Shown piece after piece: positions 6,570 to 57,697 of a DNA stretch of 57,697 nt. Both the position numbers and the translations under genes were made by a program. The stretch spans positions 12,260,720 through 12,318,416 of the forward strand of contig NC_079879.1 of the NCBI RefSeq assembly GCF_029227915.1, given 5' to 3'. Within the stretch, counting starts at the first letter, position 1. Every line of letters begins with the position of its first letter. The DNA is from Hydractinia symbiolongicarpus (taxonomy: Eukaryota). The notes below the pieces were generated by a model that saw only the letters and a list, made by a program, of their open reading frames with translations, had not been told where the DNA came from and did no database searches.

Positions 6570-6606
6570 GAAGCTAATGATTTATTGACAATAAATCATT
6601 AGCTTC
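6570..6606. repeat. 16-bp-stem hairpin palindrome (gaagctaatgatttat / ataaatcattagcttc) with duplicated 'ttgacaataaat'
   Basis: Read directly as an inverted repeat. Confidence 0.6.
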
Positions 6607-10200: not shown

Positions 10201-10425
10201 CCCCGATCTCCCTTCTGAGAACAGTGAAAAAGGCTTACCGCATCTGGGCATGGGATAGACCGGTTCCGTTGGGGGGCGTTATTTCCCTCCATGGTTTTCT
10301 TCTGATGCTTGACGGATGAAATGCTACCAGAAGATGTGCTGGCTGGAAGCGATGGAAAAACCTAAGAATACAAACAGTAGAAAAAAGATATAACAACAGA
10401 AAGACAATAGTCCTACAAACATTAG
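7268..10425 (-). mobile_element. Degenerate LTR retrotransposon remnant (Ty3/gypsy- or BEL/Pao-like, order gag-PR-RT-RH-INT on the minus strand) flanked by 66-bp direct repeats
   Basis: The direct repeat 'aacctaagaatacaaaca(a/g)tagaa(t/a)aaagatataacaacagaaagacaatagtcctaca' sits at 7268-7333 and 10360-10425. Internal minus-strand ORF fragments are: gag zinc-knuckle remnants (10060-10292, 'CGKP..' and 'GIRNHIAS' in different frames); a PR-like 'IDCGAQ' (9679-10002); RT ('LNPDKFQF...FDGFRI...') at 9017-9262; RNase H ('APIEGECLAVAWGL') at 8292-8894; integrase HHCC ('HSAHQGVSAMESRARAIVFWPGMTNDIQAIRQNCKLCNRNAP') at 8110-8421. Confidence 0.7.
7398..10292 (-). pseudogene. gag-pol pseudogene of the LTR element (multiple frameshifts)
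   Basis: The domains above are spread over at least 6 different minus-strand ORF fragments. The plus-strand ORFs in this interval (8597-8794, 9243-9560 and others) are antisense artefacts. Confidence 0.65.
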
Positions 10426-11269
10426 ACCTATAAAAAGAACACAATTCAGGCTACACTTTTCTCTTTGAAAACTGACCTAAATTAGGAAATCAGTAAAGGT
10501 AACCCCAGTAGTGAAATACTTTAGATTTGAAAACAGCGAAAAAAATGTGTGTATGTCATTGTATTGATTTATATTTGGACAGGTAAAAAAGTGGCTTAAC
10601 AATACTAATCAGCTAATGTCAAACCCATTAAAACTGTAACTACATTTCTAAATGCATTAAGAAGGTTTTGACCTTATCTGGTATTATCCGGCATTTACAG
10701 CTCATTCTAATAGATAACCATAGCACAACATCCTTAGTTATAGGTTATAACTAAAGCTAAGTAGCAAATTAAATTTTGTTTTTTGACCAAGCAGAAAGAA
10801 ATAATTTTCATAACAAAAGAATTCAATTACGTGAGAATAGTAAAAAACCATCTCGCCTAACCCCCTTTGTTAACTGTTTATATGGAGTTTTAAATTCCTT
10901 TAAAAATAGGACTTAAACAAGATCACGGCAAACGGGCTGGCCCTGCTGCCGGACTGGGACTGGCTTGTCTTCCATATAAACAGCCTTTTGTAATGATTTT
11001 GTGGATGATGCCACAGCTTTACGTTGGTCGTCCGGAGTAAACAAGACAAACGCTCTTGTTGCCTCCCTAAGCCCTGACTATTTTAAAAATGTTTACAACA
11101 ACAGGATGTAGTCCAGAGTGCAAGACAACATGTCTAGTTAGCTGTACACAAATTTAATGAGGTGGGACGGGAAGAAGTTTTCTTCAAGTCCTTCCGTGAC
11201 GGAACGGGTTTTGTTATGGTAGCTGATTACTAATAAAGTTTCATTTACTGTTTTGTAACTGAGAAACCT

Positions 11270-42830: not shown

Positions 42831-43811
42831 CTGCATAAAGTAAATTCAGCTGTATTCTGAGAGACAAATTTTTCTAGAATCACTAACAAAAACTTTGAGA
42901 CTTGCAGATGTGTTTAATAGGAATTTTGATGGGTAGTGTAAAAATGTATTGGCAACCTCGGAAAAGAAGAAAAATCTCGCCCCCGCCCTCCTTCCACCCC
43001 CGCCAATTTTAACCGACGGAATTTCATTTTGAATTTCATTTAATTTAGGTTTTTAATGAATTTAGGTGGGAAACGGTTATGTCGCCAAAGGAGACCCTGA
43101 GAACGAGCCAGGCTAACAAAACCCCTCCCCCATAACTTCCAAACACCATATTTAGTTAGCTTTTTTACAGTCAAAATGTTTTTGGTATGACGTCATGCTG
43201 ACACCCTTGTTAACGCAGGTGAAGAATATTCGGCTATTTTTTTTTTGAAATATCTTTATTACTAGTTCTAATTTTTTGTTAAACACGCATCATATAAAAC
43301 ATTTATTTTGATTGTAGTGGCGGCTTCTCCCTGTGTAACATGTGCTCTGGGTGTGCTTTAGCTCTAATACTCTTAGTGTAGAACTTTTCCGTTTTCAACA
43401 AAGCTTAGCATAGTATACAAAGAAAAGGATTCTTAATTGTATGATGGTGGTATCGGAGCCGATCCGAAGGCCTATCCTATAGCAGTTTTTTTTATTTCAC
43501 TCTCAATTTAAAGAAACTTATCAGACGAATTAAATTCTGCCAAATTTAGTTTTCCTCAAAAATTCCCTTTCCTCATCTAAACGCTCTAATTTTTGTGACT
43601 TTTCACACACACAAAATATATACATATAAAAAAAGTTTATCAAAAAACCTACCATATTGCATGAAATTAACAGTCAATAAATTCAAGCCTTTTATAAAAG
43701 GTTAGCGAAAAAAATACAGATATCGTGCGATTTATCTGTTTTGTGATCTAAAAAAGCTATAGTTCATTGTCAGTAGGGAATAGTCTACGTTTTAGTTTAA
43801 GTTGGTCAATT

Positions 43812-43895
43812 CTTTAAAGAAACATATACATGGTCGTTCAGCATATATATTTTTTTGGTTATATGCTGAACGACCATGTATATGTTTCTTTAAAG
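43812..43895. repeat. 84-bp perfect palindrome (36-bp arms 'ctttaaagaaacatatacatggtcgttcagcatata', 12-bp spacer)
   Basis: The arms are exact reverse complements. Confidence 0.75.
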
Positions 43896-44561
43896 TATTA
43901 ATATACGTTCACATGAACATGTCATTTAAAAAGTTGGTCAATTGTTGAAAAAGTTTTTCTATGTCGTTGTCAAGGAATTTGTTCCATAGTTTGGGTCCCC
44001 TACTAGTAAAAGAGTTGTGTGTTGTAAATACCAAAAGATTGTTTAAATTACTCTTGGAATCACTGTTTTCAAGTTTGAAAAGAAATATAACAGTCCAAAA
44101 AACGTTTTCCAAATACAAAAATTAGTCTCCAGTAACACCAATGACCCATTCCCATACATTGCCTTATGGAAGCATAAACGAATATAAAGAATTAAATTCA
44201 AAGAAGCAATCAAAAAATTGGTGCCATTTCAAAAGAATGTATATTTGGATCAATCTCAAGCTTTTTCCTGCCGATATATTCAAAATATATATGCAAAAAA
44301 ATAAAATAGAAAAAAATAAATACATGTTAAGTTATCTTCTCCTGACTTTGATTTTAGGTTTAAGAAGACATTTTATGGATAAACCTTGTTCCCAGGGCTT
44401 TTCCCGGCGTGAGATATGTAAAAGACAACAGGTCCTGAGATAGAGGCTGAACATGATAACTGAATTTTTTAAGAAAAGATCCAACGACTCTCTGTACAAC
44501 TAGAGAAACATGTCTATAGGCAACCTCGTTACCAAAGCTTGTTGTCCCTTTTTTATTATGA

Positions 44562-44720: not shown

Positions 44721-45004
44721 GCTTCCTTGGATAACTTCAAAATAAGCTTCATCAAATGGAAGATAAATTAAATAATCATAGCAGAAATCAAGGAATAAAT
44801 TTCTGTATTCTAAAAATGATTTTTGCGTTTTAAAATATTCGTGTAGTTTTGCGTTCAATAGGTTAAATGGGAGCAATATCTGCGTTTTCTGATAGTAGTA
44901 GTAGGGAGTGATTATAATCAGGTTTTCGCTCCTTCCACACCTTTACCCCCAAAAACCCCGCTTTCACCATTTCCACCACCACCTCATCCCAAAATAGAAA
45001 AATC

Positions 45005-45125
45005 ATATGACGTCATCAACACATAATCATATTCATATGCCAATAACCAACACATAATAATAGATACCAGAAATACATGACATCATCAACGCATGCGCAA
45101 TAGCATATATGCTATATATAAGGGA
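45005..45125 (+). promoter_or_regulatory. Left terminal region: duplicated 'CATGAC(G/A)TCATCAAC(A/G)CAT' motifs (45005-45025, 45076-45095) resembling the adenovirus ITR core CATCATCAAT, followed by a TATA box 'TATATATAAGGG' (45113-45125)
   Basis: Read directly. The first copy contains the perfect palindrome ATGACGTCAT and the second contains 'CATCATCAAC'. Both lie ~100-200 bp upstream of the first ORF of the element. Confidence 0.5.
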
Positions 45126-45203
45126 AATTCCCTGAAATATTCAATCCTTGACCAAACCCAAAAAAAAAGTGCTGGTTGAAATTGAAATCTACCTATAATA
45201 AAG

Positions 45204-46073
45204 ATGAGTTGGTTCAAAAATGCAATCAGTAAAATATATAATATCGTGTCGGCACCAGTAGCGGCAACTCGCGAAGCTATCACTAAACAACTAAGGAGCG
45301 TGCGGGATACCGTTAGTTACTATTATAACAAGGCCAGGGATCAATTTTCAGGAACACCAACTCTCTACGATGAGGTTCAACGGGCCACCATCGAAGATGA
45401 ACATGAAGGAATTGAGGACCTCAAACACATGTTTGGGAAAGAATCTAAGCATGCCACCAACACGGAAGTGATCCAGGATATTCAGAACATTTTTGATGAT
45501 GACGCAGAAATGATAGAAGACGAAAACCGCATCAAAACATGGAGGTTCAACAAAAACCTTAACCAGCCATTGACAGATACCATTATGCGAAAAATCACAC
45601 CACACGTAGACATGTGTGTGAAGGTGGTATACAGCTTTGGCTGTGATATTTACAGAGACGGTGGAGATGTTGCAAATTATCACAAAACCAAGAGCTCCAG
45701 GTCACTATCAATCGAGGCTTTCATCGATGAATGTGAGATGAAACGCCTTGATTTGGAAGATGCGGAGTTTTGGACGAAAGCCTATTTACCACCAGACAGA
45801 ACCATCGAGACCCCAGGAGCATATGAAGGTAAAATAATATTCAAGCACATGCAGATCAAGATAATTTCTACGGGGGAGCCCCTACTTGGATATGCCCCAT
45901 TACCAGATTGGTTGCGCGGAAAAAGGTGCATTTATAGCTTTGACAAGACGGACGAGAGAACAGACAGCTTGTGCTTCTGCAGATGCCTAGCTGTTCATTA
46001 CCGGGAAGAGCGAAAGCAATGCGAAAAGTTCCTCACAAGGTCAGCTTTCAAACTGGCTCGTGAATACTACTAG
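45204..46073 (+). CDS. N-terminal ORF (289 aa) of the pPolB region; possible terminal-protein-like or N-terminal domain of the polymerase, or a separate gene
   Basis: ATG at 45204 in the context 'cctataataaagATGagt'. It is in the same frame as the next pPolB fragment (46257) but separated by two in-frame stops. No motif was recognised. Confidence 0.4.
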   Translation: MSWFKNAISKIYNIVSAPVAATREAITKQLRSVRDTVSYYYNKARDQFSGTPTLYDEVQRATIEDEHEGIEDLKHMFGKESKHATNTEVIQDIQNIFDDDAEMIEDENRIKTWRFNKNLNQPLTDTIMRKITPHVDMCVKVVYSFGCDIYRDGGDVANYHKTKSSRSLSIEAFIDECEMKRLDLEDAEFWTKAYLPPDRTIETPGAYEGKIIFKHMQIKIISTGEPLLGYAPLPDWLRGKRCIYSFDKTDERTDSLCFCRCLAVHYREERKQCEKFLTRSAFKLAREYY

Positions 46074-46256
46074 GACCCCAAGCTAAAGAGGGAAGAAGTA
46101 CGTGCTACGAGGCTCTTAGACCTGGAAGGTATCGCTACAAAATTCAAAATTAACATAAGAGTATTTGAACCAAAAACAAACTCCGACAAGGCCCCATGAC
46201 GTCTCGACTATGGTCAAAATCAATACAAAGAAGACTTAGACAAGATCAATATTGGT

Positions 46257-49004
46257 ATGCTACATGGTCATTGTTTCTATATCAAAAAGATGGATGTATT
46301 GACGCAGCATTGGGAATGCGAGGTTTGTACACAAAGATTTACCAGATCCGAAAATCTCACACGACACAAGAATAACGAATGCGAAGGCATCAAGACCAAG
46401 ATCATTTGCAAAAGTGAAAAGGTCGAGCGCATGCAGAGTAGCTCTGAAAAGGTATTCTGTCCCGATAAAGGGTTCAGTTACGCGGCATGCCAATGGATTG
46501 AGGCCATGTCAGAGCAAACAGGCCGACATATACACCACGCGATTTGTGGAAATGGAAGAAACGTGTGATACGCGATGGTATTAAGGAAGTTTATAGGGTA
46601 GATGGGTATGATCTTTGTACGAAGACAGTATACGAATACCACGGTTGCAAATGGCATGGATGTCCATGTCAACCACAGCGAACCAACACCGATAAAAATA
46701 ATTTCAATCGTACCAAATTTAAAAAAGGCCACATCAAAAAACTAGGGTACAATCTTGTCACTGCATGGAAGTGTGAAGATCCTCCCAAGGCTAACAGGTT
46801 ATTTAAGAAAGAATTTCGACCCTATCCCCATTTCATCGTTTTTAACTTCGAGGCCCTCCGGGCACCATTGAATCAGTAGCCCACGTACGATAGCCTACAG
46901 AAACATCCAACATTCATCATGAATGAAAGGTGCTTGTGCAAAAATTCGTCGAACAATTGGAGCAGAGACATATCCGTATTGTCCAAGAAGTCGAACGTAT
47001 ATATCCCAAGCCGGATGATTTTGATATGCTCCCGGAACAAACCCAAAATGCTTGGCTTGAATGGGTAAATCAAGTGATGGTGATAGGCTTTAACAGTGGC
47101 AAGTACGATATAAACCTGATAAAGCGGTATTTTGTCGAACGAATTGCGGATGATAATAATGTTAAAGTGGCGAAAAAGACAACGACTACATGTTTCTAAC
47201 CACATCGAGGTTCAAATTTATCGAAATTAAGAATTTTCTCGCACCAGGCTTGAGTTATGAAAAATGGTGCAAGTCGCTGGATTATGATCTCGAGAAGCTC
47301 GTGTTCCCATACGAATGGCTAACATGCTATGAAAAGTTGAACCATGTGGGCCCAGTCGATCATGAGGCATTTTATAGCACTCTCAGTGGTAAAAACACCC
47401 TATCACTTGAAGATTACCAGGCTTTCCGGGATGAGTTTTTTAAAAGAGAATGCGTGACGATGCTGGATTGGTTAGCCGAATACAATCTGGCGGACGTAAT
47501 ACCATTTATCGAGGCCGTCGACAAGACCTACAACACGTACTACGAGGATGAGATTGACATTCTAAAAGATGCCGTGAGCATTCCAGGTGTGTCGATGCGG
47601 TACGTTCTGAACAAGTCTCTGCGGTTGAACCATGATATAAATCTTTTTGCACCGGGTGATCCATGTAAGCATAAATGTGAGGCTCATTGTACCAAAGCCT
47701 TATGCAAAGCATGCAAGGAGGTTCAAAAAGATTGTACATCTTGTACAAAGAACAAGGCGTATGAGCTCCTGCAAATTGGCATGGTAGGTGGCCCTGCGAT
47801 CGTATTCTGCAGGTACCACGAGAGGGATGTGACGGGTATTCGCTCACATATTTATACCGAACCAAAAAAATGCAAGACAATACTCGGGTATGATGCCAAC
47901 ATGCTCTACCCAAGCACACTACTACAGGATTTCCCTTGTGGGAAGGAGAAGCTGGTAAAAATGGCAGACCCTGCTGAAAAAATAGATGATCTGGTGCAAG
48001 ACATTCTTGATGAATCGCTCTTCGGGTTTGCACAAGTTGATATTGAAGTGCCTACTGAGTTGTACGAAAAATTCAGCGAGATGTCACCGTTATTTTTGGT
48101 TAGAGAGATGACAATCAAATCCCTCAGCATATGCACGATTATTTGACCAAGACAGAGCGAAAACGTATCCCGGGTACTAAAAAGCTGTTGGGAGTGATGA
48201 AAGCTGAGAAGATTCTGCTTTGTACGGACCTGCTTAAATGGTACCTGGGGCATGGGTTGAAGATTACGGCTTGTTATCAAATACTCAAATACAAACGCGG
48301 TAAGCCATTCGCGTGGTTCCCGGAAGAAATTGCGGATGCGCGGTGCCAGGCAGATAAGGACCCCGACAAGCGAGTATTTAGAAGAGATTGGAAATGCATA
48401 TGAAGTAAGGCGGAGTAAACAAGGCGTTTCCATTAATAGAGCGTATCAATGTCGAATCCTAGTATATCAATTAGCTAAATTGCGGATGCTTCAATTCTAT
48501 TACGACTTCCTTGATAACTACGTAGATCGACGAAATTTCGAATATATTTACGTGGATACGGACTCCACGTATTTTGCAATCTCTGGAGAAAACCTACGTG
48601 ATGATGTTCGTCCCGAATTAATCGAGCAGTACAATGAGGCAGTGCCTAATTGGCTCGTTACAGACAATCCCTCGAGTAGAACCGGAGGGTTATTCAAGGA
48701 GGAATTCATTGGGACCAGTATGTTTGCCCTAACAGCCGAGTGTTATTTCGTCGAGGGTCAAGATGATACGAAATTTTCTTGTAAGGGCATGTCAAAAAGA
48801 CAAAATGAGATAACATGGTCTAGATATATGGGAGCACCTAACAGAGATTTGGATACCACTAAAAAAGTGGGCTTCCGCGTATATAATGAGGGAATGGTGA
48901 CTTATAAACAAAACAAGCTTGGGCTATCGGCGAACGCAATAAATGCCACCATGGGAAACAGCATGGCCATTGTGGAAAAAGGAAAACCAATCGAAAGGCT
49001 ATAG
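46257..49004 (+). pseudogene. Protein-primed family-B DNA polymerase (pPolB), disrupted by multiple frameshifts and stops
   Basis: The fragments are 46257-46568 (f0, C2H2-like 'CEVCTQRFTRSENLTRHKNNEC'); 46544-46879 (f2, 'TVYEYHGCKWHGCPC' Cys/His motif); 46930-47199 (f1); 47190-48146 (f0, exonuclease/TPR region and motif A 'KTILGYDANMLYPSTLL'); 48131-48403 (f2, pre-motif B 'KRGKPFAWFPEEI'); 48330-49004 (f0, 'SKQGVSINRAYQ', motif C 'YIYVDTDSTYF', 'KGMSKRQ'). Confidence 0.8.
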
Positions 49005-49079
49005 ATTCATATCAGAGTAATTTAGCGCTTTATCCAAAGGTGTTGTGAGACACCCCCTTATACACAAAGCTGCAAATAA

Positions 49080-49691
49080 ATGGAGTTATTTTTACTGATA
49101 TCGATACTCCTCCCATACGTAGTAATCATTGCTTGTTTCTGTCGGTACAGACGTCTAATAAACATGGCTCAAGATTTATCGGAGATATTTGACGTAGTTG
49201 ACACTCCAGCCGAGGCTGTTGATCAACCTATAGATAAACGCAAAGCTCTGAAGGATATTTGTAAGTCAAAGCCTCAATTTTTAGCGAAAAAACATACTGA
49301 GGCATTCCTGGACAAAGCATCACCCGAGGTTATAGAAAAAATATACAATGACTGTACTGAACAAGAGTTGGTGGAAAAAGGGCAGAAGACTGCCTTGGCC
49401 CTTTCAACCCATGCGATAAGCTTGTACACTAAGCCAATAGGAAATATTGTACCGCTCGATAGTCCCGAAGGTCTGCGTCATGATTTAGAAAACGATCCTA
49501 TTATCCGCGAATCCATGGCTGATCTTGGGATCCTCGTCTATACAGCATTCGAGAAATTCCTCGCGCTTTTGTTGGTAGCGGCACATACCATTAATCACAC
49601 CCAGCTCTCAATGTCCAAGAGTGGTGACGAGCAGGTTGATGAAGAGAAAGAAAAGAATGGGAAACAGCCTATCGAAGATACACATGGGTAA
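49080..49691 (+). CDS. Hypothetical protein (203 aa) with an N-terminal hydrophobic segment and an acidic C-terminus; alternative ATG at 49164 ('ctaataaacATGgct')
   Basis: Intact ORF. The ATG at 49080 lies in the context 'gcaaataaATGgag'. Confidence 0.4.
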   Translation: MELFLLISILLPYVVIIACFCRYRRLINMAQDLSEIFDVVDTPAEAVDQPIDKRKALKDICKSKPQFLAKKHTEAFLDKASPEVIEKIYNDCTEQELVEKGQKTALALSTHAISLYTKPIGNIVPLDSPEGLRHDLENDPIIRESMADLGILVYTAFEKFLALLLVAAHTINHTQLSMSKSGDEQVDEEKEKNGKQPIEDTHG

Positions 49692-49938
49692 TCGTGAGTT
49701 GGTTGAACGGGTAAACCTGTTACTCACAGGCGGAAAAACAGCCTGCAGGTATACAGATATTACGGGGACGGGGGCTGTTTACGGGGACTGTGCACGTGGT
49801 ATAGAAATCCTGACACCTGTAGGAGATCGCTTCCCACCACAAGCATATGATTTAGTGGCAACTAAACATATGAATAGGGTTATGGTCGATGGTAGAAACG
49901 GTTTAAAGGCCACCAAGAGGAGGCCTTGTATGTTATGA
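49684..49938 (+). CDS. Small hypothetical protein ('MGNRELVERVNLLLTGGKTACRYTDITGTGAVYGDCARG...')
   Basis: The track ORF 49621-49938 starts at GTG and overlaps the previous ORF. The ATG at 49684 is the first after the stop of the upstream ORF. Confidence 0.25.
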   Translation: MGNRELVERVNLLLTGGKTACRYTDITGTGAVYGDCARGIEILTPVGDRFPPQAYDLVATKHMNRVMVDGRNGLKATKRRPCML

Positions 49939-49987
49939 AGATTAAGCTAGAGGGAAGTGATTTTATAACTCGTTGGAGTTATAAAAA

Positions 49988-50263
49988 ATGATCACTGAAC
50001 AATCAAAACAAGAGAGGGTTATAACAAAACCAGTGAAACACCCTGGGAGAGTAGCCCAAGGCCACAGACTAGCGGCACTGATAAGGGAGAGAAAGCTTGG
50101 AAGAGCTCCGCCCAAGAAAGACCCCATGACGTTTAGAGAGTTCTTAAGATACTTTGAGAGAGATTTAAATACTCCTGAAGTCATACTCACGGGGATAAAA
50201 GAGACTGTGGAGATGCTAGAGGAACAGGGTCTATCCCTCTATCTGAATGTAAAAAAGAAGTGA
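49988..50263 (+). CDS. Small basic protein P1 (91 aa)
   Basis: ATG in the context 'gttataaaaaATGatc'. N-terminal motif 'QERVITKPVKHPGRVAQGHRLAALIRERK', shared with the adjacent paralog. Confidence 0.5.
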   Translation: MITEQSKQERVITKPVKHPGRVAQGHRLAALIRERKLGRAPPKKDPMTFREFLRYFERDLNTPEVILTGIKETVEMLEEQGLSLYLNVKKK

Positions 50264-50292
50264 TTTGTTACAGGTCTTACGGCCTATAACAA

Positions 50293-50626
50293 TTGAGTGA
50301 AGAGACTACCCAAGTAATCACCAAGAAAAACGAAGGACGTGTTGCTGCTGGTAAGAGACTTGCGGAATGGAATCGCAAGAACAAGGCCGACTTGAAAAAG
50401 AACATGGGCAAAGGTACTTTGCAGGATGGTCAGGAACCTGCGGCAGGTTCCTCCAAGTCCATGGGAAGAATATATATTGGTGGAGGCCTTATTATCATGT
50501 ATCGGAGGTGTCATATATTTTATCCGTAAAAAACCCGCGGGTACTCAGCAGCCTGCTGCAGTGGCTCAGCAACCAAGCGTTAGGCAGGAGCCTAAGGCAG
50601 ATATTGATATTTTTCACACGAGATAG
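50293..50626 (+). pseudogene. Paralog P2 of the small basic protein (TTG at the start position, C-terminal frameshift)
   Basis: 'MSEETTQVITKKNEGRVAAGKRLAEWNRKNK' aligns with P1. The start position is TTG ('cctataacaaTTGagt', against 'ataaaaaATG' in P1). The frame then shifts into 50426-50626, which encodes a TM-like 'EALLSCIGGVIYFIRKK'. Confidence 0.4.
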
Positions 50627-50637
50627 GCCTATAATAA

Positions 50638-50886
50638 ATGTCAAACGTAAGTCCTCAGCAAAAGGAGATTATAGACATGATTTATGAGACAGTCGTGGAT
50701 CTTGGGTTCACAATTGGATATGCAATGGTTGGGAAGAAATTCCTTGAGATCTCGAGTCCTTCGACTAAGTTGGATACCAGCGACGTTATGAAAATGGTAG
50801 CGTATTCCACCGCAGGGCGAGGCAGTCGTGAGATGGCAGTTAGCAAGGGGTGGTTGCCCGCGAGTATAGTCCCAAAACCCAAGTAA
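50638..50886 (+). CDS. Small hypothetical protein (82 aa)
   Basis: ATG in the context 'cctataataaATGtca'. Confidence 0.35.
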   Translation: MSNVSPQQKEIIDMIYETVVDLGFTIGYAMVGKKFLEISSPSTKLDTSDVMKMVAYSTAGRGSREMAVSKGWLPASIVPKPK

Positions 50887-50901
50887 GCACCTTACTCAAA
50901 C

Positions 50902-51350
50902 ATGTTGGATATTGTTAAAGAACCTCATACAGCGATATTTACCGGGCCTACGTCGTGCGGTAAAACTCAAAGAGTTCTGGCCATGCATGAGCATGAGTAC
51001 AGGGGACAATTCCACAATATCGTTATACTCTGTCCTACTCTCCGCTGGAATGCCACTTATCTCGATAGACCATCGCTTTGGAAAGATCCTTATGTATTTC
51101 TTATTGATCCAGGTGATAATTTGTTCGATTGGATCGAGAAACTATCATCTCTGCTGGCAGGCGAAGAGAGCTTGTTTATCGTAGATGATATCATCGCTAA
51201 TGAATCTCTCGACTAACGAAGGCAACCTTGCTCGAGTTAGCAATATCTGGTAGACATCGAAGGCACTCAATATGGCTCTTGACTCAATCATACACGGCAA
51301 TTCCAAAAAATCTCCGCCGACAGAAAAAGCAGCTGTTTGGATGGTGAGAC
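50902..51350 (+). pseudogene. A32/FtsK-HerA-like DNA-packaging ATPase, split by a frameshift
   Basis: 50902-51216 carries Walker A 'FTGPTSCGKTQ' and Walker B 'SLFIVDDII'. Continuation in another frame after 51216: 'KATLLELAISGRHRRHSIWLLTQSYTAIPKNLRRQ' (the A32-like 'SGRH...Q.Y..IPK..R.N' region). Confidence 0.65.
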
Positions 51351-51459
51351 CAACCTTATCGAAGATTGGGAGTCGATCAAAAACCAGTTGAAAAAATCAA
51401 AGCATGCGTGCCTATATATTCGTCTCGAGCATCCTCGGAATTGGAGTACATTAGAATAA

Positions 51460-51648
51460 ATGGCATACATCAGAACATTAAAACAACAGCTGAAGGCCTG
51501 TCACGAAGAAATGGACAAAATACCCTATCTAGAATCTCAACTGGAAGCTCTTGATGAAGAGCTAAGGTATGCATTAGAAAGGGAAAGGAATACCAAGTAT
51601 TTTTTTATAACCGTCCTACTCATTGTGACCCTGGTTGGGGTAATGTAA
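51460..51648 (+). CDS. Small coiled-coil protein with a C-terminal transmembrane anchor (62 aa)
   Basis: ATG in the context 'tagaataaATGgca'. '...LEALDEELRYALERE...' then 'FFITVLLIVTLVGVM'. Confidence 0.4.
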   Translation: MAYIRTLKQQLKACHEEMDKIPYLESQLEALDEELRYALERERNTKYFFITVLLIVTLVGVM

Positions 51649-51657
51649 ATAATAAAA

Positions 51658-52464
51658 ATGTCCTTACTTGCTTTAAACACATTACCTGCTGGAGCTATTG
51701 AGACTTTATTCGATGCGCAAGATCAGCCTCTTTTTAAACGTGCTGATCTTGGGAGATTCTTGAGAATTATTGATATAAGAACATCTTGTAGAGCTCTAAA
51801 TATAGTGGAGAAGACGCGTATAGAGCCAAATGCTCAGGACCCGGCATGGTATGCCGGGCCAAAGGAAACTAAAAATCCTCACGATGTATTCATCTCCTTG
51901 GACGGTGCTCTTGAGATTTGTGTACATTCAAGAAAACCAAAGGCTCTTGAAATTATGAGAATGCTGGCGTCGAAAGGGATTGAAAAATTACAAGAAACCA
52001 TCGAAGAGCATCATCAAGCTCTTGCAATACTTAGCGATGACCTAAAGGATAGGGACGTAACTATAGCAAACCTTCAGGAGGATCTTCAGGAAAGAGAAAA
52101 CCAACTCGACCTACGAACATTGGAAATTGCGGGACTCCATCAAAGATACGTACCACATGCCAATGATGCGGGCAAGGAAAATGTTATTATGATTTTTCGC
52201 AAACATACAAAACCGGAAGACGATAAATACCACCATCTTCCGTATTACTGTGCCGCGTACAAAAACGGGCAATCTTCAAGAGAAAACGATGGATCAGGGC
52301 TCAATATCCTGAGTCTGAAGAAACTGTTGCTATTGATAATGCAAATGGCATGCATGCGTTTAATCGGTTTGAAGAGGAAGGACATATGGAGCGATACATA
52401 TGCCACTTCAGGCTTATTGGTCTTACTCGCGAGCATTTATATGACCTGGGAGATCCGACATTAG
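51658..52464 (+). CDS. Bro-N (baculovirus repeated ORF N-terminal / KilA-N-like) DNA-binding domain protein with a C-terminal coiled coil (268 aa)
   Basis: ATG in the context 'aaataataaaaATGtcc'. The N-terminal ~110 aa ('LFKRADLGRFLRIIDI...DVFISLDGALEICVHSRKPKALEIMRMLASKGI') matches the Bro-N pattern (...GLY.LI..SRKP.AK.F..W...). A heptad-rich region follows ('LQETIEEHHQALAILSDDLKDRDVTIANLQEDLQERENQL'). Confidence 0.6.
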   Translation: MSLLALNTLPAGAIETLFDAQDQPLFKRADLGRFLRIIDIRTSCRALNIVEKTRIEPNAQDPAWYAGPKETKNPHDVFISLDGALEICVHSRKPKALEIMRMLASKGIEKLQETIEEHHQALAILSDDLKDRDVTIANLQEDLQERENQLDLRTLEIAGLHQRYVPHANDAGKENVIMIFRKHTKPEDDKYHHLPYYCAAYKNGQSSRENDGSGLNILSLKKLLLLIMQMACMRLIGLKRKDIWSDTYATSGLLVLLASIYMTWEIRH

Positions 52465-52635
52465 AAGATTAGAGAGCGTGGTTTTGTGTGTTCATAGCAC
52501 ACAAAATCGAGAAATATTACCATTCCCTAACATATTCTGGCGGTACCTCAGCACCCTCGGGAATCAACATGAGCTCCTCCGCCACAAAACTTCGATCAGG
52601 ACCTCCATCGAGATAATATAGGAGACGGGTACCAG

Positions 52636-53934
52636 TTACGATACGGTCGAGTCTATACGTACGCTTTGACCACCACGCATCAGTCGCGCGTCTTTTGGCA
52701 TCCCCATGTTCCTCACCAGGCTGTAGGAGATATAAATATAAGCCGTCTTCTGGTAATGTGTTTTCCTCGGGTGCTTCTCACTTTTCGCGAGTGGTACTTC
52801 ATCAAGCTTGATCGCTTTTGAAGGTTTCATTCCAATCATCGCGGTCTTGGTGTTGTTCATGGTTTTCACAATATTGTACAAGTGCTTGACCCATGTGGTA
52901 CTAGTTTCGTCAGATGCAAGCTCTTGCGCATCCTCGGGCTTGAAGAGCCTTTGTGCGAGTACTTTGTTGTAGGACTCCACGAACGCTGTGAACGCATGGT
53001 GATATTTAGTAGTTGCCCGGTTGATGGAAACGCGTTTGGATTCCAACAGCTTACTCACATCAGACTTGAACTAACTACCATTATCGCATTGGAAGGTCTT
53101 GGGGTATCGTAAAGGTCCTGCTTTATAAATATCCTTGATATATCCTTAAAATATCCTTCTTAGTACGTAATGGCCTCGCTACCTTATACCTTGAGGCCAC
53201 GTCAATACCCGTCAAAATGTACTTATAGGTGTTTCCATAGACTTTGTCATGGGGCATGTAGAGCAAGTTAATGCATCTCGTTGGGCTTTGTGATTGTGAA
53301 ATGTGGGTAGTTGATGCGCTTGGGCCCTTTGATATGTCGGAGGCAGAGCAACTGACGACCAGTGCATTACTCTCTTTTTTGATAGGCCAGAGTTTTCAGC
53401 GAGCAGTTTGATCGCTTTCCGTCCAGTCCAGAGATTTTCTGGAGAATAGTAGATTTGACTAAGCTTTTCAGCTTCCTCCCCGGTAATGATATGTGCTTTT
53501 GTTTTCGACATCTTTATTATACATGTCGAAAACGATTGCGCCCATTTGTACGCCGCAAAACCCAAAAGGGCTAAGGAGCCAAGAATGAACGTCAGTTCAC
53601 CGTCTTTTTGCTGCTTTGAGGGTGTATAAATATCTGAGAGCTTTGGGGCCCTATCGATAGTAGCAATGAAATACTTTCTCATTCCTTCGTCCAATTCCTT
53701 CAAATCTTCACCAGCTTGCCTTTGCTCCTCCCTTCTCTTATTGTACGTATCAATTTTTGCTTGTCTGTCACGCACCCATTGAGCTTGGGCAGCTTGAAGT
53801 TTTTCTACCGCTAAATCGTGCCTTTTCCGCTCTTCTTCACCATGACCTGAGAGTTTACTGAATAGGAAATTAGAGCCACTAAAGGCCAATGCGTTAATCG
53901 CTGTACCTGCTACGAGCATATCAATTGTTGCCAT
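52636..53934 (-). pseudogene. Retroviral-type (rve) DDE integrase, frameshifted with an internal stop; read through in-frame from an upstream 141-aa membrane/coiled-coil segment
   Basis: Likely integrase ATG at 53509-53511 (minus), context 'gtataataaagATGtcg', giving 'MSKTKAHIITGEEAEKLSQIYYSPENLWTGRKAIKLLAENSGLSKKRVMHWSSVALPPTYQ...'. This resembles the Polinton/Ty3-type integrase N-terminus (YYDP..GF.....L...A......+.+..V..WL..Q). A frame switch leads to 'LTGIDVASRYKVARPL' (catalytic D1). A second switch leads to 'KTFQCDNGS*FKSDVSKLLESKRV...' (D2, with a TAG stop in the DNGSEF motif) and then 'FTAFVESYNKVLAQ' (catalytic E). The track ORF 53212-53934 starts with 'MATIDMLVAGTAINALAFSG...', which has 2 hydrophobic segments and a coiled coil. 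Confidence 0.7.
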
Positions 53935-53977
53935 TTATTTTGTAGACCCAAGGCCTACAAAAACAAATTTTGATCTC

Positions 53978-55189
53978 TTAATATTCTACACTGTGGAACC
54001 TGCCATCCAGGATGTTTAATTGCGCGTCTTGGATAAGGAAGACGTAGCACCTAACGTCTCCATTGCCATCCGCTTTTTTCGTCATGTGCAGGGTTATACC
54101 GTCCCATAACCTTTGCAGAGGCCGCCCACTACCATGTAGGCCCCGATCATGTGTTGCCCTGAAATCAATGAATAGCGCATAGCGCTTGGTGAAAAATTGA
54201 CCTATGGTCACTTCACTATCATGGCACCCAAATAATTTAACGATCTGCTGCAAATGATCTCGAGGGAGCATAGAATGTGAATACCGTGACAGAAATCTTT
54301 TCGATTTTGGGATTGTAGAATTGCTCATTGACACCCGCATAAGCCTTGGATACTTCAGGATCGACGAATAGTAGTAATATACCCACCAAGGATTTAGCAG
54401 GGGTATCGACTTGGAGATTGTAGGATGTATCACTTTTCTTCATAGTCACCACTTTACTCCTCAATACTCGTTCGTATGGTAGGGCAAGGCGGCTGTATTG
54501 CGACATCATAGCGCTCGCCAGATCCTCATTACTAATTGTTCAAACTCGAGCGAAATGTTAGAGATTTTGTATGTAGCGTCAGCTGCCTTGGCTGCGGTTG
54601 AGCCTGCGGCTGGTGTACCGGCATCCTTGATGACTTGATCGTATGAAGCGAAATGTAGAACGAACTTTAGCCTATCGTGGAGTCCATGTTGATAAAACGG
54701 GGGATCTCTCGTCAACTCGAACATTTTCCCCAACGGAATACAAAAAGTGTTTCCGTAAGCCGCGGCTATAGCACGCTCCTCATTTGTTCCTACATGATCA
54801 GACGCTTTTACCTGCAACGCACGGATTGTTCCATCATTTGGATTTATGCCCTCCAAAATCAGGTTATTTTCCCGATTGAATTTTGATATCCATAGATCAC
54901 GGTAGACATTGAATACATTATAATCTGCAATATGCTGGACCTCATTCCCATTCAAAGTAATACGTAGGTCACGCACCAGGGCCTTCCCAATATTGCTAAC
55001 GAGCGTTCTTTTCGTGTTGGTGCCGGTCAGTTCCATATCAAATAGTAGCCGGATACTCCCAGGAAATATAATATCGTCTCGACCAATCGTGGACGGTACA
55101 TGACTCACTTTAACCCGCTGCCTCTTGCCTATGACAGCGAGCATAGTCTTGACTTTCTGATAAGGGTTTAGTCTTCCAAAAACACTCAT
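53978..55189 (-). pseudogene. Candidate major capsid protein gene (~400 aa) split into 3 ORFs (54506-55189, 54237-54509, 53978-54433)
   Basis: ATG at 55187-55189 in the context 'cctaaataaATGagt'. Beta-rich composition ('DDIIFPGSIRLLFDMELTG...LRITLNGNEVQHIADYNVFNVYRDLW'). The size and position match the virion module of Polintons. The assignment is by position and composition only, with no motif-level proof. Confidence 0.3.
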
Positions 55190-55218
55190 TTATTTAGGTA
55201 GTCTGGTGGTTGAAATAA

Positions 55219-55677
55219 ATGGCTGATAATCTGGGATATGAAGATGACTTTACGCCAGAGGAAGATATTCAAGACGAAGCCGAGGAGTTTAGTAGCGAGA
55301 GCGAGATCCTTCGGCCCAAGCCTGATGTCAGCCTAACGCCAGGACAACAGCAGGGAGGTGCGCGTAGGCGATTGGATGTGGGGCTGGGGGAACAGAATTT
55401 AGAGAAAACCGTCGACGATCTTTATGCTAAACTTAGTGAGCATTTAGGATTAAGGCTGTCAACCGATAAAAATTATCATTATTTTAGGGCCGATGAGGGT
55501 AAAAAGCTTGTTTTTAGACAGATGACGAAAGGGGAACGGGTCTATAAAGAGATAGTTCTTACGACTATGACCGGTGAGTTAAGAGCTATTACAGCCATAG
55601 AGACGGACTTAGGACCTACGCGTCTAAAGGCCTTAGGTTTTACCGGCTATGTTACACCAAAAAAGGCAGTAAAATGA
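55219..55677 (+). CDS. Hypothetical protein with an acidic N-terminus (152 aa)
   Basis: ATG in the context 'gaaataaATGgct'. Confidence 0.35.
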   Translation: MADNLGYEDDFTPEEDIQDEAEEFSSESEILRPKPDVSLTPGQQQGGARRRLDVGLGEQNLEKTVDDLYAKLSEHLGLRLSTDKNYHYFRADEGKKLVFRQMTKGERVYKEIVLTTMTGELRAITAIETDLGPTRLKALGFTGYVTPKKAVK

Positions 55678-55970
55678 GAAGTCAAAAACTCCTGAATGAT
55701 ATTGATATCATCAATGACAACCCTGGTGACATCGAGATGCTGCCGCTACTAGAGAATGTAATAGATGATGCGAAGAGCCTGATGGAGGATGCTTCCTTTA
55801 CCGAAGCCTTAGAAGAACGTGAAAGAAAGGGGGTTAACCGCGAGCTTCAGACTCTCAACGGTAAACTGAAGAGGTTAAAGATAAAGAAAGCTACACCAGG
55901 TGTATCCGAGGAGCAACAAAAAATTAAGGACATCCACAATCAGCTGAGGCGATTAAGGAGACCCTCATGA
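55674..55970 (+). CDS. Small coiled-coil protein (98 aa)
   Basis: ATG in the context 'cagtaaaATGaga'. Overlaps the neighbouring ORFs by 4 nt (ATGA). Confidence 0.35.
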   Translation: MRSQKLLNDIDIINDNPGDIEMLPLLENVIDDAKSLMEDASFTEALEERERKGVNRELQTLNGKLKRLKIKKATPGVSEEQQKIKDIHNQLRRLRRPS

Positions 55971-56374
55971 AAATAGCTGGAAATGACACATCCCTACGGG
56001 AGAAATTGATCATTTTGGTCAAAGAGCAGGGGCTCACTATCGCGAGCATCACCTCAGCTGTTGGTCTACTGGTCTCTACCATCGTGCTCGCCGTCACCGG
56101 AGGAAGTGCAGGCGCCGTAGGAAGTACAAGAGGAGGTGGTGGTAGCAAAAGGTTTGTAAGAAAGCAGTTGGAGAGACTGGGAAAATTCCTGAAGTATCTA
56201 GCAGGCAAGGCCGGGGCAGCATTACCAGGGATCATTAGCAGCGTGGTGTCGTTCTTTTTCAGAGTTGCAGCGAGAGTTGTCGAATTCGCAGCAAAGCACT
56301 TGTATATGGCCTTGGCTGCCGCTGTGGGTATTGTTGTTGCGTATGTAAGTAACAGGAGGAGTAAGAATCGATGA
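55967..56374 (+). CDS. Membrane protein with 2-3 TM segments and a Gly-rich loop (135 aa)
   Basis: 'LTIASITSAVGLLVSTIVLAVTGGSAGAVGSTRGGGGSKRF...AALPGIISSVVSFFF...LAAAVGIVVAYV'. Confidence 0.35.
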   Translation: MKIAGNDTSLREKLIILVKEQGLTIASITSAVGLLVSTIVLAVTGGSAGAVGSTRGGGGSKRFVRKQLERLGKFLKYLAGKAGAALPGIISSVVSFFFRVAARVVEFAAKHLYMALAAAVGIVVAYVSNRRSKNR

Positions 56375-56405
56375 AGAGTCTAGTATGTTGTTCAACACAT
56401 TAGAC

Positions 56406-56966
56406 CTATTTCTTCATCCAGATGAAAGCGAGGATAAGTCCTACTCCTACCGTAACCAGCGTGGCTTTGGTATCCTCGTGAACAGCAGCTTCCTTGGAGG
56501 ATGGTGGAGGGAGGGGTATATCATGTACCTGCTTCCTTGCTATGGGATTGGCAACAGTATGCGGAGCGTTAATATTGGGATTGATACCAATCTTGAAATG
56601 GTCCTGACTAATCAAGATCCTGTTGTTAAATCCAGCCACATTTCCGATCCTCAGTGACATATCGCTTGTGATCATATATACGCCACGAGCAACACTATAG
56701 TCGAACTTGCTTCGTGCATATCTGAGTACGTTCTCGAATTCACTAATCTCTCTACCTTTATTTGTAGGTCTAATCCCCAGCTGTTCAAAGGTCGTCAAGT
56801 AAAGCCGTTGAGCATCGATAGAACTGCCTTGATTACCAATAATTCCTGATCGCGCATTGGCTTGGGACTCCAAAATCAAATACGGGTAGCATCGCACACT
56901 TTGCAATAACTTTTCAATACCAATACTGGTAAAGCCTTTGCTATTTTCCATGATCCTCCTCCTCAT
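56406..56966 (-). CDS. Hypothetical virion-module protein (186 aa); possible minor capsid/penton candidate
   Basis: Intact minus-strand ORF with ATG at 56964-56966. No motif was recognised. Confidence 0.25.
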   Translation of the reverse strand: MRRRIMENSKGFTSIGIEKLLQSVRCYPYLILESQANARSGIIGNQGSSIDAQRLYLTTFEQLGIRPTNKGREISEFENVLRYARSKFDYSVARGVYMITSDMSLRIGNVAGFNNRILISQDHFKIGINPNINAPHTVANPIARKQVHDIPLPPPSSKEAAVHEDTKATLVTVGVGLILAFIWMKK

Positions 56967-57396
56967 GATCCGGCATCAAAATACGAAGGTCCCGCACCGG
57001 GAAAATCTTTACGTTTGGCTTGCCAACTACTGAACAACGTTTCATTTTCCCATTCATGCTCACTTGGAAATACTCCAAATACACGGCACGTACAAGGGGT
57101 AATGGAGACGTTAGATGCTGCATCGATATCCCACAACCTGATGTTGCAGCGAGTACAGCAAAGTTCAATTGTGTTCACCAGAGGCTGAAAGGGTGGGTCC
57201 TCCAATCATTAATCGGAGGATTACTATGAAAAACATAGTCCACAAAGATATCGGGAAACCGTACTTTAAATGACGAGCCTTTCGCATCAACAACGATAGA
57301 TTGCACAATGAGATCAGAGCCCTTTAACTGCTCCAGGTACCTGCCATGATTGGGGACATATTTTGCTCTTGAGTTGTACGAATATAGTTGCTTCAT
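56941..57396 (-). pseudogene. Fragmented minus-strand ORFs; speculative adenain/Ulp1-like cysteine protease remnant
   Basis: 'QPLVNTIE...' (frame 56963-57205) and 'AVLAATSGCGISMQHL' (frame 56941-57168, TTG start) resemble the adenain 'VNT..' and 'Q..S.SCG.F' contexts. Weak. Confidence 0.15.
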
Positions 57397-57697
57397 GTTT
57401 CTTAAAGAAAGATGCGACAGTTATATATAACCGACATTTCGAACCCCACGATATTTGAGAATTACCTAGGAGAGGACACGAGGATCGCTCTAAAATCCAT
57501 AAGTATTCGGTTGAACCTCTACAGTAACAACGATTTTACTATCCGTAAGGTAGGGCCCGATCAGACGGTTACTCGAATTGAAATAATGAATGGGTTGTAC
57601 AAGATCGAGGATTTAGCGAGTATCGTCAACAGTCAGGCACAGGGCAAGGTACAACTTTTTGTTCTGAAAAATGGACTCTGCAGGCTACGTGTTAATG

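Follow-up and report, generated by a model that had tools for sequence, protein, structure and literature searches.

An A/T-only box at the start codons of a decayed Maverick/polintovirus-like element in a hydrozoan genome: a candidate initiator resembling poxvirus TAAATG

In a stretch of DNA from the hydrozoan Hydractinia symbiolongicarpus (57,697 nt in all, here called the window), an integrated element is found in which a short A/T-only box (AATAAATG, TATAATAAAGATG) adjoins nearly every gene start, and the question raised by this locus is what that box does. The sequence-only reading had taken it for a promoter or initiator signal belonging to the element itself, of the kind in which the TAAATG of poxvirus late genes provides the start codon. 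The element is a decayed, integrated Maverick/polintovirus-like element:

44893..57697, no strand assigned: Maverick/polintovirus-like element, with its right end beyond the window

Its left boundary is approximate and was placed at a step in GC content together with a TAGTAGTAGTAG run, GC being 0.42-0.46 in the element versus 0.33 in the host part of the window. The element genes encode a protein-primed PolB, an rve integrase, an A32-like ATPase, a likely capsid protein and a Bro-N protein; Pfam matches in the element are to DNA_pol_B_2, Bro-N and Capsid_N, and the integrase, ATPase, capsid and other genes are homologous to those of related elements at loci L001, L004, L007, L008 and L011. 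The protein-primed family B polymerase was recognized from one fragment of a frameshifted gene (DNA_pol_B_2, E=9.6e-6, 25.2 bits versus a cut-off of 25.8). Pfam gave no direct match on the integrase fragments of the window; the stretch 53496-52502 on the minus strand aligns over the full length of a 342-aa protein of L001 (44-58% identity, E=5e-76), which carries PF00665 and whose alignment begins at its residue 3, that is, at window position 53496. The ATPase is homologous to Pox_A32-annotated genes of L001, L004 and L011. The capsid assignment comes from a weak Capsid_N match (E=4.8e-4); the AlphaFold (AF2) model of this protein, with a mean pLDDT of 51.7, was too poor for a fold search, a profile search of the PDB found nothing, and a scan of IMG/VR with the capsid profile returned neither relatives nor a related free viral contig. 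A capsid homologue of 62% identity, LOC130647207, is on record from Hydractinia symbiolongicarpus. Frameshifts have broken up three genes, those of PolB, the capsid protein and the ATPase, and a copy decayed in this way need not be active.

All 13 sites that had been listed from the sequence, ten on the plus strand and three on the minus strand, read exactly as quoted, and a divergent pair with a TTAAAGAAAG-type variant, 57396(-)/57412(+), is extra to that list. The sites are as follows:

45192..45206, plus strand: CCTATAATAAAG-ATG, start of the PolB gene
49072..49082, plus strand: GCAAATAA-ATG, start of a 203-aa ORF
49154..49166, plus strand: TCTAATAAAC-ATG, internal second start of the 203-aa ORF, just past its hydrophobic N-terminal segment
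49978..49990, plus strand: GTTATAAAAA-ATG, start of a 91-aa ORF; a TATAAAAA variant as in L007
50283..50295, plus strand: CCTATAACAA-TTG, probable decayed instance, two substitutions from CCTATAATAA-ATG
50628..50640, plus strand: CCTATAATAA-ATG, start of an 82-aa ORF
51452..51462, plus strand: TAGAATAA-ATG, start of a 62-aa ORF
51647..51660, plus strand: AAATAATAAAA-ATG, start of the Bro-N protein gene
53509..53522, minus strand: GTATAATAAAG-ATG, integrase start, with the motif within the 3' end of the upstream reading frame
53932..53944, minus strand: ACAAAATAA-ATG, start of a conserved membrane-protein gene; the L002 orthologue has CTAATAAACGA-ATG
55187..55198, minus strand: CCTAAATAA-ATG, start of the major capsid protein gene, N-terminus conserved from the first Met (L005, L002, L008, L009)
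55211..55221, plus strand: TGAAATAA-ATG, start of a 152-aa ORF paired divergently with the capsid gene, the two ATGs being separated by 29 nt
55666..55676, plus strand: GCAGTAAA-ATG(A), TAAAATG variant overlapping the stop codon of the upstream ORF
57394..57414, both strands: divergent pair whose ATGs are separated by 15 nt, TTTAAGAAAC-ATG (minus, 57396) and TTAAAGAAAG-ATG (plus, 57412)

The ORF at the decayed site 50283..50295 is a paralogue of the one at 49988, and the pair in L007 that is homologous to 57396/57412 has TATAAAAA-ATG on both sides. At 49164 and 53511 the motif is present as quoted, but both starts are embedded in upstream reading frames, while 56966 on the minus strand is not a gene start but an internal fragment of the frameshifted gene that starts at 57396(-). 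The window copy uses two forms of the box: PolB and the integrase have TATAATAAAGATG, whereas AATAAATG stands before structural and small genes. TAAATG occurs at 7 gene starts in the window, the remaining starts having TAAAG-ATG, TAAAA-ATG or TAAAC-ATG. After homology-based curation, a TAAA-type box lies at most 7 nt from the ATG in about 14 of 16 real gene starts. The two starts without it are 55967, which overlaps an upstream stop, and the ATPase start 50902, unlike the ATPase orthologue in L005, which has CTCAAATAAATG / AAATAAATG at its start.

One simple explanation would be that the association arose by chance, or as an artefact of ORF calling or of the composition of an AT-rich genome: A+T makes up 67% of the host, in which TAAATG is a common word (65 sites). 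The association with starts was measured over 45,001-57,697 of the element, which contains 519 ATGs on both strands, with the first ATGs of ORFs of at least 60 aa as the gene-start set. AATAA occupies -5..-1 at 6 of 37 ORF-first ATGs versus 1 of 482 other ATGs in the element (Fisher p=5.9e-7), and ATAA occupies -4..-1 at 7 of 37 versus 4 of 478 (p=1.4e-6). The same start-codon test in the host control (1-44,900) gave 0 of 40 ORF starts versus 13 of 1602 other ATGs. In mononucleotide shuffles, ATAA is found at -4 in 0.7% of ORF starts (maximum 6.5%) compared with the 19% observed, so that ORF-calling bias via in-frame TAA cannot account for the enrichment. Moreover, AATAAATG occurs 7 times in the element where dinucleotide shuffles predict 0.93 (none of 300 reaches 7), and TATAATAAA 3 times where they predict 0.23. 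The T of the box is itself specific, beyond mere A/T-richness: of the eight curated starts that are all-A/T at -5..-1, six have exactly AATAA (p=7e-6 under an A/T-only null). With p about 1e-6 inside the GC-richer element, no association in the host, shuffles that never reach the counts and conservation of the box in relatives, chance or compositional artefact is refuted and has virtually no likelihood left. Coupling of stop and start through an in-frame TAA was also rejected: the TAA is not the stop of the upstream ORF, and its T lies out of frame in the relatives. The box is a real, non-random, element-specific signal tied to gene starts on both strands.

The conservation is seen in related elements of other genomes, which keep TAAA by their start codons in at least four other sources at 37-70% capsid identity, and in which the intergenic spacers diverge while the box stays. 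When the divergent region between the capsid gene and its partner is compared among the window, L005 (70% capsid identity) and L002 (56%), the two boxes alone are conserved. In L004, the box is at 10 of 29 ORF starts versus 23 of 475 other ATGs (p=3e-6), and in L001 at 7 of 41 versus 32 of 627 (p=0.007); L007 has TATAAAAA-ATG at 3 of 3 genes, L008 has the box at most genes, a 930-aa PolB among them, and in L011, which belongs to the same capsid family but is more distant, the start codons adjoin TATA(A/T)-type boxes. The distance of the T from the ATG differs with lineage, being -3 in the window, -4 in L004, -5 in L001 and -6 in L007. Across 7 loci, 45 of 78 starts bear the motif, and these 45 give the pooled consensus WWWAAA-ATG-G, with A in 78% at -3 (78-96% over -3 to -1) and G in 53% at +4.

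The TATA-box-like appearance of TATAATAAA, and of TATAAAAA in L007, raises the possibility that TBP binds the box as a Pol II TATA box, so that the transcript would start about 30 nt downstream and the true start codon would be a later ATG. The capsid N-termini, however, are alike from Met1 (MSVFGRLNPY / MSNVFGTKLDPY / MTSFGKTLNPY / MTTYGRKLNPY), and the next in-frame Met is residue 16. This conservation means that the box-touching ATG is used and that the transcript cannot begin about 30 nt downstream of the box. Conservation likewise starts at the box-touching Met in capsid orthologues from five loci, in the membrane protein and in the ATPase, and these N-termini rule out a TATA box at -30 combined with an internal start codon, an arrangement that we consider very unlikely. 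Judged by this protein conservation, the ATG adjoining the box is a real start codon.

Another possibility is that the A/T stretch is a translation-initiation context, i.e., an A-rich, unstructured ribosome start site on transcripts that begin further upstream from ordinary promoters. The Kozak rule asks for a purine at -3 and G at +4, and the pooled consensus of the relatives, with A at -3 and G at +4, would suit a eukaryotic context of this kind. The nearest upstream ATG is mostly 50-250 nt away, which leaves ATG-free stretches long enough for normal leaders; ordinary 5' UTRs would fit, although these distances do not separate short from ordinary leaders. Two genes also have canonical TATA boxes ahead of their ATG, at a distance of 85 nt for PolB and of 28-36 nt for 57396, and these are compatible with plain host Pol II promoters. 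However, the purine at -3 that is present in the L001/L004/L007/L008 clade is missing from the dominant AATAA-ATG of the window, where the T at -3 (the six starts of eight noted above) is unfavourable for scanning ribosomes, and the T is kept at lineage-specific offsets rather than being replaced by A. The longer shared words (CCTATAATAA, TATAATAAAG) reach past any known start context, the single-exon host GPCR gene starts with CAAATC-ATG, and none of 40 host ORF starts has the box. A translational role is unlikely, though it and polyadenylation are the main rivals of the reading preferred below.

A third explanation looks to the other side of the box, where AATAAA would primarily direct cleavage and polyadenylation for the co-oriented gene that precedes it and would have been pushed against the next start by genome compaction. 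AATAAA is present in every window instance if the A of the ATG is counted, and 10 of the 13 AATAAA hexamers in the element fall at box sites, 0-2 nt from a gene-start ATG. That this hexamer is the canonical poly(A) signal is a point absent from the sequence-only reading. In co-directional arrays, the boxes lie 9-110 nt past the upstream stop, and the box variants of relatives (ATTAAA, TATAAA, CATAAA, TTTAAA) resemble known poly(A) hexamer variants. AATAAA is also mildly depleted in sense gene bodies (4 observed versus 8.7 expected, with 10 of 200 shuffles as low), a depletion that is marginal and partly due to stop-codon avoidance. The box thus shares with the eukaryotic AAUAAA signal both its hexamer and, within arrays, its location downstream of a co-oriented gene, but differs from it in being present where there is no such gene and absent at the ends of terminal genes. 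Three boxes, those of the first gene (45204) and of the divergent pair 55189/55219, have no co-oriented gene upstream and so cannot be 3'-end signals, and the same arrangement recurs in the divergent pairs of relatives, with ATGs 19-21 nt apart in L004 and L007. Neither of the convergent junctions of the window (52464/52502 and 56374/56406), where the terminal genes of arrays end, contains AATAAA; they have hairpins instead:

52477..52511, no strand assigned: hairpin lying exactly between the stops of two convergent genes, Bro-N (plus) and integrase (minus), -16.4 kcal/mol, z = -4.8
56367..56423, no strand assigned: hairpin between the convergent ends of the 55219-56374 (plus) array and the 57396-56406 (minus) gene, -18.2 kcal/mol, z = -4.6

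None of 200 shuffles folds as well as the first hairpin. Such hairpins are clear in the window and in L004, and not clear at the junctions of the other relatives, which are only roughly defined. Finally, cleavage 10-30 nt downstream of the box would land inside the next ORF. A primary role in polyadenylation is quite unlikely, while a poly(A) role alongside a promoter role may exist.

Hydrozoans trans-splice, and the box might also be a processing signal of polycistronic precursors that receive a spliced leader, as in hydrozoan operons. AG stands directly before the ATG in two boxes (45204 and 53511), but boxes occupy both strands of divergent pairs, and spliced-leader operon processing was rejected because most boxes lack an AG acceptor within 6-20 nt of the ATG; it retains a very slight likelihood.

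The explanation that we prefer, and to which we would give about an even chance, is that the box is a compact core promoter or initiator that places transcript starts at the start codon, as poxvirus TAAATG does; it is from position, conservation and analogy that we infer a transcriptional function and initiation inside the box. The box would be the element's own gene-start signal, with the consensus (A/T)TAAA followed by 0-2 nt and the ATG, and would set the point of initiation inside the A-run or a few bases before it. The resulting mRNAs, one for every gene or short cluster of overlapping genes, would have almost no templated 5' leader, an architecture known from the intermediate and late promoters of poxviruses (TAAA / TAAATG) and from late initiators of other giant viruses. 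In tight divergent pairs, the box of each partner would double as the upstream A/T box of the other, and within co-directional arrays the AATAAA form may also act as a poly(A) signal for the gene before it. Weighing against this explanation, no independent upstream element stands out in the pooled profile of the box-bearing starts, which has no TATA or A/T peak at -30; the all-A/T box at about -22 in the L004 clade and about -30 in the window clade belongs largely to the divergent partner.

As to which enzyme would read such an initiator, one candidate is host Pol II under the direction of a factor from the element (VLTF3 in a sister clade, perhaps the Bro-N protein here), and another is the polymerase of a hypothetical helper giant virus. 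No RNA polymerase, capping enzyme or VLTF3 was found by Pfam in the visible 12.7 kb of the element (44,893-57,697; it continues past the window), and the remaining window ORFs, searched against Pfam with E values up to 1, yielded no relevant match. The proposal of an own initiator signal with virus-type transcription is supported in part, namely for the motif and the analogy; virus-type transcription itself would be a conjecture. A tblastn search with VLTF3 against the window and all loci matched in L011 only, with none in the window, L001, L004, L007 or L008; L011 encodes Pox_VLTF3 (E=7.7e-19), and in L011/L012 this factor accompanies rve, A32, Bro-N and capsid genes. A wider VLTF3 homology search brought up thousands of near-identical copies, all of them from a single ENA genome and uninformative about hydrozoans more closely related to the host.

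A bolder form of the proposal is that this hydrozoan Maverick family is transcribed from pox/giant-virus-type late initiators and not as ordinary Pol II genes, its members behaving like virophages or satellites of a cnidarian pox/NCLDV-like virus or redirecting a polymerase by means of VLTF3; this we regard as unlikely. The traits cited for a virus-type reading are TAAATG at the start codon, hairpin 3' ends and VLTF3 in some lineages. If it were true, the late-promoter architecture of NCLDVs would be common to Polinton-like ancestors and perhaps older than their separation.

A conserved box in contact with the start codon, identical in its core to the late initiator of poxviruses, provides a concrete, mutable cis-element for the expression of an animal Maverick. 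Should transcription start there, animal Mavericks would rank beside virophages and Polinton-like viruses as users of giant-virus-style signals. Helper viruses in cnidarians, or a mechanism centred on VLTF3, would then be indicated, and the result would be relevant to the proposal that giant viruses descend from Polinton-like ancestors. Should it be a translation or 3'-end signal instead, the box would still annotate true gene starts, including the hidden ones at 49164 and 53511.

A close known parallel is with the intermediate and late promoters of poxviruses (TAAA / TAAAT(G)). Poxvirus late transcripts start in the A-triplet and acquire a non-templated 5' poly(A) leader, and they are made by a multisubunit virus RNA polymerase with VLTF-1/2/3. 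The element shares with these promoters a TAAATG that overlaps the start codon in all-A/T surroundings, the lack of space for a templated leader, an A-run before TG that could permit polymerase slippage and, in its relative L011, the matching late factor family. The likeness to poxvirus late promoters claimed from the sequence is exact for the TAAATG core, and does not extend clearly to the T-rich core 8-20 nt upstream: in the box-bearing starts, the pooled A+T is 0.68-0.74 at -20..-6 versus a background of about 0.62. Unlike poxviruses, the element has no gene for a virus RNA polymerase or capping enzyme in its visible part, its extended consensus is AATAAA or TATAATAAAG, and the spacing between box and ATG floats over 0-4 nt in a lineage-dependent way. 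Baculoviruses and nudiviruses have the late initiator (A/G/T)TAAG, and ASFV has a late TATA-type initiator; these are animal-infecting large DNA viruses with, as here, a very short A/T initiator near the ATG, but the box is TAAA or TAAAG rather than TAAG, and those viruses encode their own polymerase.

Among the relatives of the element itself, a VLTF3-encoding subgroup of polintoviruses is attributed to Krupovic & Koonin 2016 in a passage of PMC11131425, and VLTF3 also occurs in the adintovirus-like MELD viruses (PMC8502044). L011/L012 resemble such polintoviruses in gene set, whereas the visible part of the window's element, L001, L004, L007 and L008 are without VLTF3. In the literature examined on Mavericks, adintoviruses and coral polintoviruses, no promoter motif is described.

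For virophages and Polinton-like viruses, promoter borrowing from giant viruses, of which the sequence-only reading had named the late motifs, is documented for protist systems: the 'TCTA' of mavirus and EMALEs is copied from the CroV late promoter, and the 'AAAATTGA' of PgVV from a mimivirus-type early promoter. The element differs from these in its motif sequence, in the direct contact of the motif with the ATG and in having an animal (a hydrozoan) as host. It resembles them in being a small Polinton-related genome, without a polymerase of its own found in the visible part, in which one short motif stands before most genes and the variants of that motif follow the lineages of the elements.

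From about 44,893 to its end at 57,697 (12.8 kb), the window has a GC content of 0.42-0.46, vs. about 0.33 in the remainder, and carries intron-less ORFs crowded on both strands. Pfam gave three matches on these ORFs (DNA_pol_B_2, Bro-N, and a weak Capsid_N), and homology to related loci identified further genes:

45,204-49,004, plus strand: PolB gene, DNA_pol_B_2 on one fragment, split by frameshifts into at least five ORFs
50,902-51,453, plus strand: A32-like packaging ATPase, by homology, frameshifted
51,658-52,464, plus strand: Bro-N protein, by Pfam
53,511-52,502, minus strand: full-length rve integrase, by homology
53,934-53,545, minus strand: conserved membrane protein, by homology
55,189-54,506, minus strand: capsid gene, weak Capsid_N match, extended by homology to about 53,978-53,981, frameshifted
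57,396-56,406, minus strand: large gene, by homology, 459 aa and intact in the related locus L007, split by a frameshift here

This gene content identifies an integrated, decayed element of the Maverick/polintovirus type, which continues past the right end of the window; this copy is pseudogenised, frameshifts having split four of its genes (PolB, ATPase, capsid gene, and the counterpart of the 459-aa gene). The element sits in a hydrozoan host: its closest named capsid homologue is from Hydractinia (62% identity), and a neighbouring single-exon GPCR shares 93% identity with a Logan contig and 49% with a receptor from Hydractinia symbiolongicarpus. The PolB region contains a C2H2 zinc finger (46257-46568), and two adjacent small ORFs (49988-50263 and 50293-50529) are paralogues with the basic motif GRVA(Q/A)G(H/K)RLA in common at the N-terminus. 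A candidate left terminus (44893-45122) begins with a TAGTAGTAGTAG run at 44893-44904, on the step in GC content, and includes two copies of ATGAC(G/A)TCATCAAC(A/G)C (45007-45022 and 45077-45092), which contain a CRE-like TGACGTCA plus CATCATCAA, the latter recalling adenovirus ITR ends. About 1 kb further left, host DNA holds a 40-nt near-perfect inverted repeat (43808-43899; 98% complementary, 12-nt loop), which looks like a MITE or hairpin with no bearing on what follows.

The sequence-only reading had described a motif recurring at the start codons of the element, and its 13 quoted sites all proved exact. The observation holds and gains in strength: the motif, a short A/T-only box of TAAA type set against the ATG, is specific, conserved, and family-wide. 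With first ATGs taken from ORFs of at least 60 aa, AATAA occupies positions -5 to -1 at 6/37 first ATGs of the element vs. 1/482 other ATGs (p=5.9e-7), whereas the AT-richer host DNA of the window gave 0/40 and 13/1,602, respectively. The bias that an in-frame TAA introduces into the calling of first ATGs is small (0.7% expected from shuffles vs. 19% observed). The words AATAAATG (7 observed vs. 0.93 expected) and TATAATAAA (3 vs. 0.23) reached these counts in 0/300 shuffles, and chance is excluded by such enrichments. Ten of the 13 AATAAA hexamers in the element adjoin a gene-start ATG. The T of the box is specific, rather than a side effect of A/T-richness, because six of the eight all-A/T starts in the window read exactly AATAA (p=7e-6).

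When the gene starts of the window were curated by homology, a TAAA-type box lay within 7 nt of the ATG at about 14 of the 16 genuine starts. Two sub-forms stand out, TATAATAAAG-ATG (PolB and integrase) and (A)AATAA-ATG (capsid gene and small genes). One exception, at 55,967, has an ATG overlapping the upstream stop codon (ATGA); the other is the ATPase start at 50,902, where the box has probably been lost from this copy, the orthologue in L005 carrying CTCAAATAA-ATG. Three consecutive genes (55219-56374) are joined by ATGA overlaps at 55674-55677 and 55967-55970, with a full box only at the first, and look like one transcription unit with coupled translation. Within 49080-49166, one ORF has two in-frame starts (49080 and 49164), each with a box, separated by a 28-residue hydrophobic segment, and may yield membrane-anchored and soluble isoforms. 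ORF 50293 has TTG as its first codon, behind a degraded box.

Related loci were reached through capsid homologues in several sources:

Loci related to the element, with capsid identity to the window
L005, Logan run SRR9332373: 70%
L002, Logan run SRR3722386: 56%
L006, Logan run SRR3722386: 61%, over 65% of the query; left out of the box comparison, being without informative gene starts
L010, ENA assembly ERZ25068511: about 45%
L001 and L004, ENA assembly ERZ25878582: about 40%
L011, ENA assembly ERZ25878582: 39%
L007, L008, and L009, metagenome or WGS contigs: 37-42%

A box is kept at gene starts in L001, L002, L004, L005, L007, and L008. In the clade of the window (L005, L002), cat-TTATTT...AATAAA-atg persists between the capsid gene and its divergent partner, the 15-20 nt separating the two boxes being unrelated in sequence, and AATAAA-type boxes also precede the membrane-protein and ATPase orthologues. 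The form in the L004/L001 clade is TAAA(A)-ATG, present at 10/29 ORF starts vs. 23/475 other ATGs in L004 (p=3e-6) and at 7/41 vs. 32/627 in L001 (p=0.007). L007 has TATAAAAA-ATG at 3/3 genes, including a divergent pair merely 21 nt apart, and L008 has the box at most genes, including an intact 930-aa PolB. The morphogenesis genes of L008 and the window are homologous, yet their PolB genes (5034-7826 and 45204-49004, respectively) have no tblastn similarity at E<1e-4, which suggests that the replication module was swapped.

Pooled over seven loci, TAA with its T at -3 to -7 occurs at 45/78 starts; in these 45, G and C are almost absent from -6 to -1, and the preferred offset of the T varies by lineage (-3 in the window, -4 in L004, -5 in L001, -6 in L007). 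The capsid N-terminus is conserved from Met1 in five loci, which indicates that the ATG at the box is the real start codon. A Pol II TATA box with a start about 30 nt downstream was rejected, as conserved N-termini would be lost; so were a spliced-leader acceptor, AG being missing from most boxes, and stop/start coupling, the TAA not being the upstream ORF's stop and lying out of frame in relatives.

The box keeps its place at gene starts on both strands over a protein divergence of 37-70%, with lineage-specific spacing and drifting adjacent spacers, which marks it as a functional cis-element. Three readings are left, more than one of which could apply. A core promoter or initiator located at the start codon would be the primary function with roughly even probability. 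The box may instead serve as a translation-initiation context, a reading compatible with the A at -3 and the G at +4 in the consensus of the relatives, and upstream ATGs would be absent from leaders 50-250 nt long; however, the T at -3 in the window is unfavourable to scanning ribosomes, and the longer shared words CCTATAATAA and TATAATAAAG exceed a start context, points that favour an initiator. As the primary function, a translation context is unlikely. A poly(A) signal, less probable still as the primary function, would account for the window box always being AATAAA and for its position after the upstream stop in gene arrays; elsewhere, AATAAA is depleted to a marginal degree. However, boxes occur without any preceding same-strand gene (at the first gene and in divergent pairs whose ATGs are 15-35 nt apart), as expected of an initiator, and AATAAA is missing at terminal genes. 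Exactly at both convergent junctions of the window lie strong hairpins instead, with no AATAAA nearby, as at one in L004, the junctions of other relatives being definable only roughly:

Hairpins at convergent gene junctions
52477-52511, window: z = -4.8
56367-56423, window: z = -4.6
14277-14336, L004: z = -5.2

Their role may be that of bidirectional terminators or of 3'-end signals; they recall the hairpin-type 3'-end formation of mimiviruses, and those of the window count in favour of the initiator reading. In arrays a dual role is plausible, as one box could close the transcript before it and open the one after it.

The initiator reading is also favoured by more distant members of the capsid family, L011 and L012, which encode a bona fide Pox_VLTF3, the poxvirus-type late transcription factor (E=7.7e-19; 4136-4942 and 10001-10807, respectively), together with a weak TFIIB-like zinc-ribbon match, and whose own start codons carry boxes of the TATA(A/T) type. 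The VLTF3-encoding Maverick lineage is massively amplified in one eukaryotic genome (ERZ25878582), with >3,000 VLTF3 protein clusters, the best 120 matches listed having 84-93% identity to the query.

The proposal of a virus-type promoter is partly supported. The window box is the same sequence as the late initiator of poxviruses, TAAATG, a further argument for the initiator reading; no RNAP, capping enzyme, or VLTF3 was found in the stretch of the element that the window covers (by Pfam, and for VLTF3 also by tblastn). Two genes have canonical TATA boxes ahead of the ATG, PolB at a distance of about 85 nt (TATATATAAG, 45113-45122) and the 57,396 gene at 28-36 nt. Given both observations, host Pol II would be no less likely than a helper-virus polymerase to use such an initiator.

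Protist virophages and Polinton-like viruses carry the promoter motifs of their helpers: mavirus and EMALEs have TCTA, from the CroV late promoter, and PgVV has the helper-type motif AAAATTGA. VLTF3 is already known from a polintovirus subgroup that includes coral elements, and a preprint on entomopoxvirus-associated Polinton-like viruses, which does not discuss promoters, groups cnidarian Polinton capsids with them in one tree. In the literature searched, a TAAATG or TAAA-ATG box was not found described for animal Mavericks. The box matches the pox-type late promoter in sequence, but the cognate virus polymerase that defines such a promoter is missing from the visible sequence, and an upstream core could not be demonstrated; it is therefore termed pox-late-like rather than classed as a pox late promoter. 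It represents a known kind of signal, in an altered form and in an unexpected host setting.
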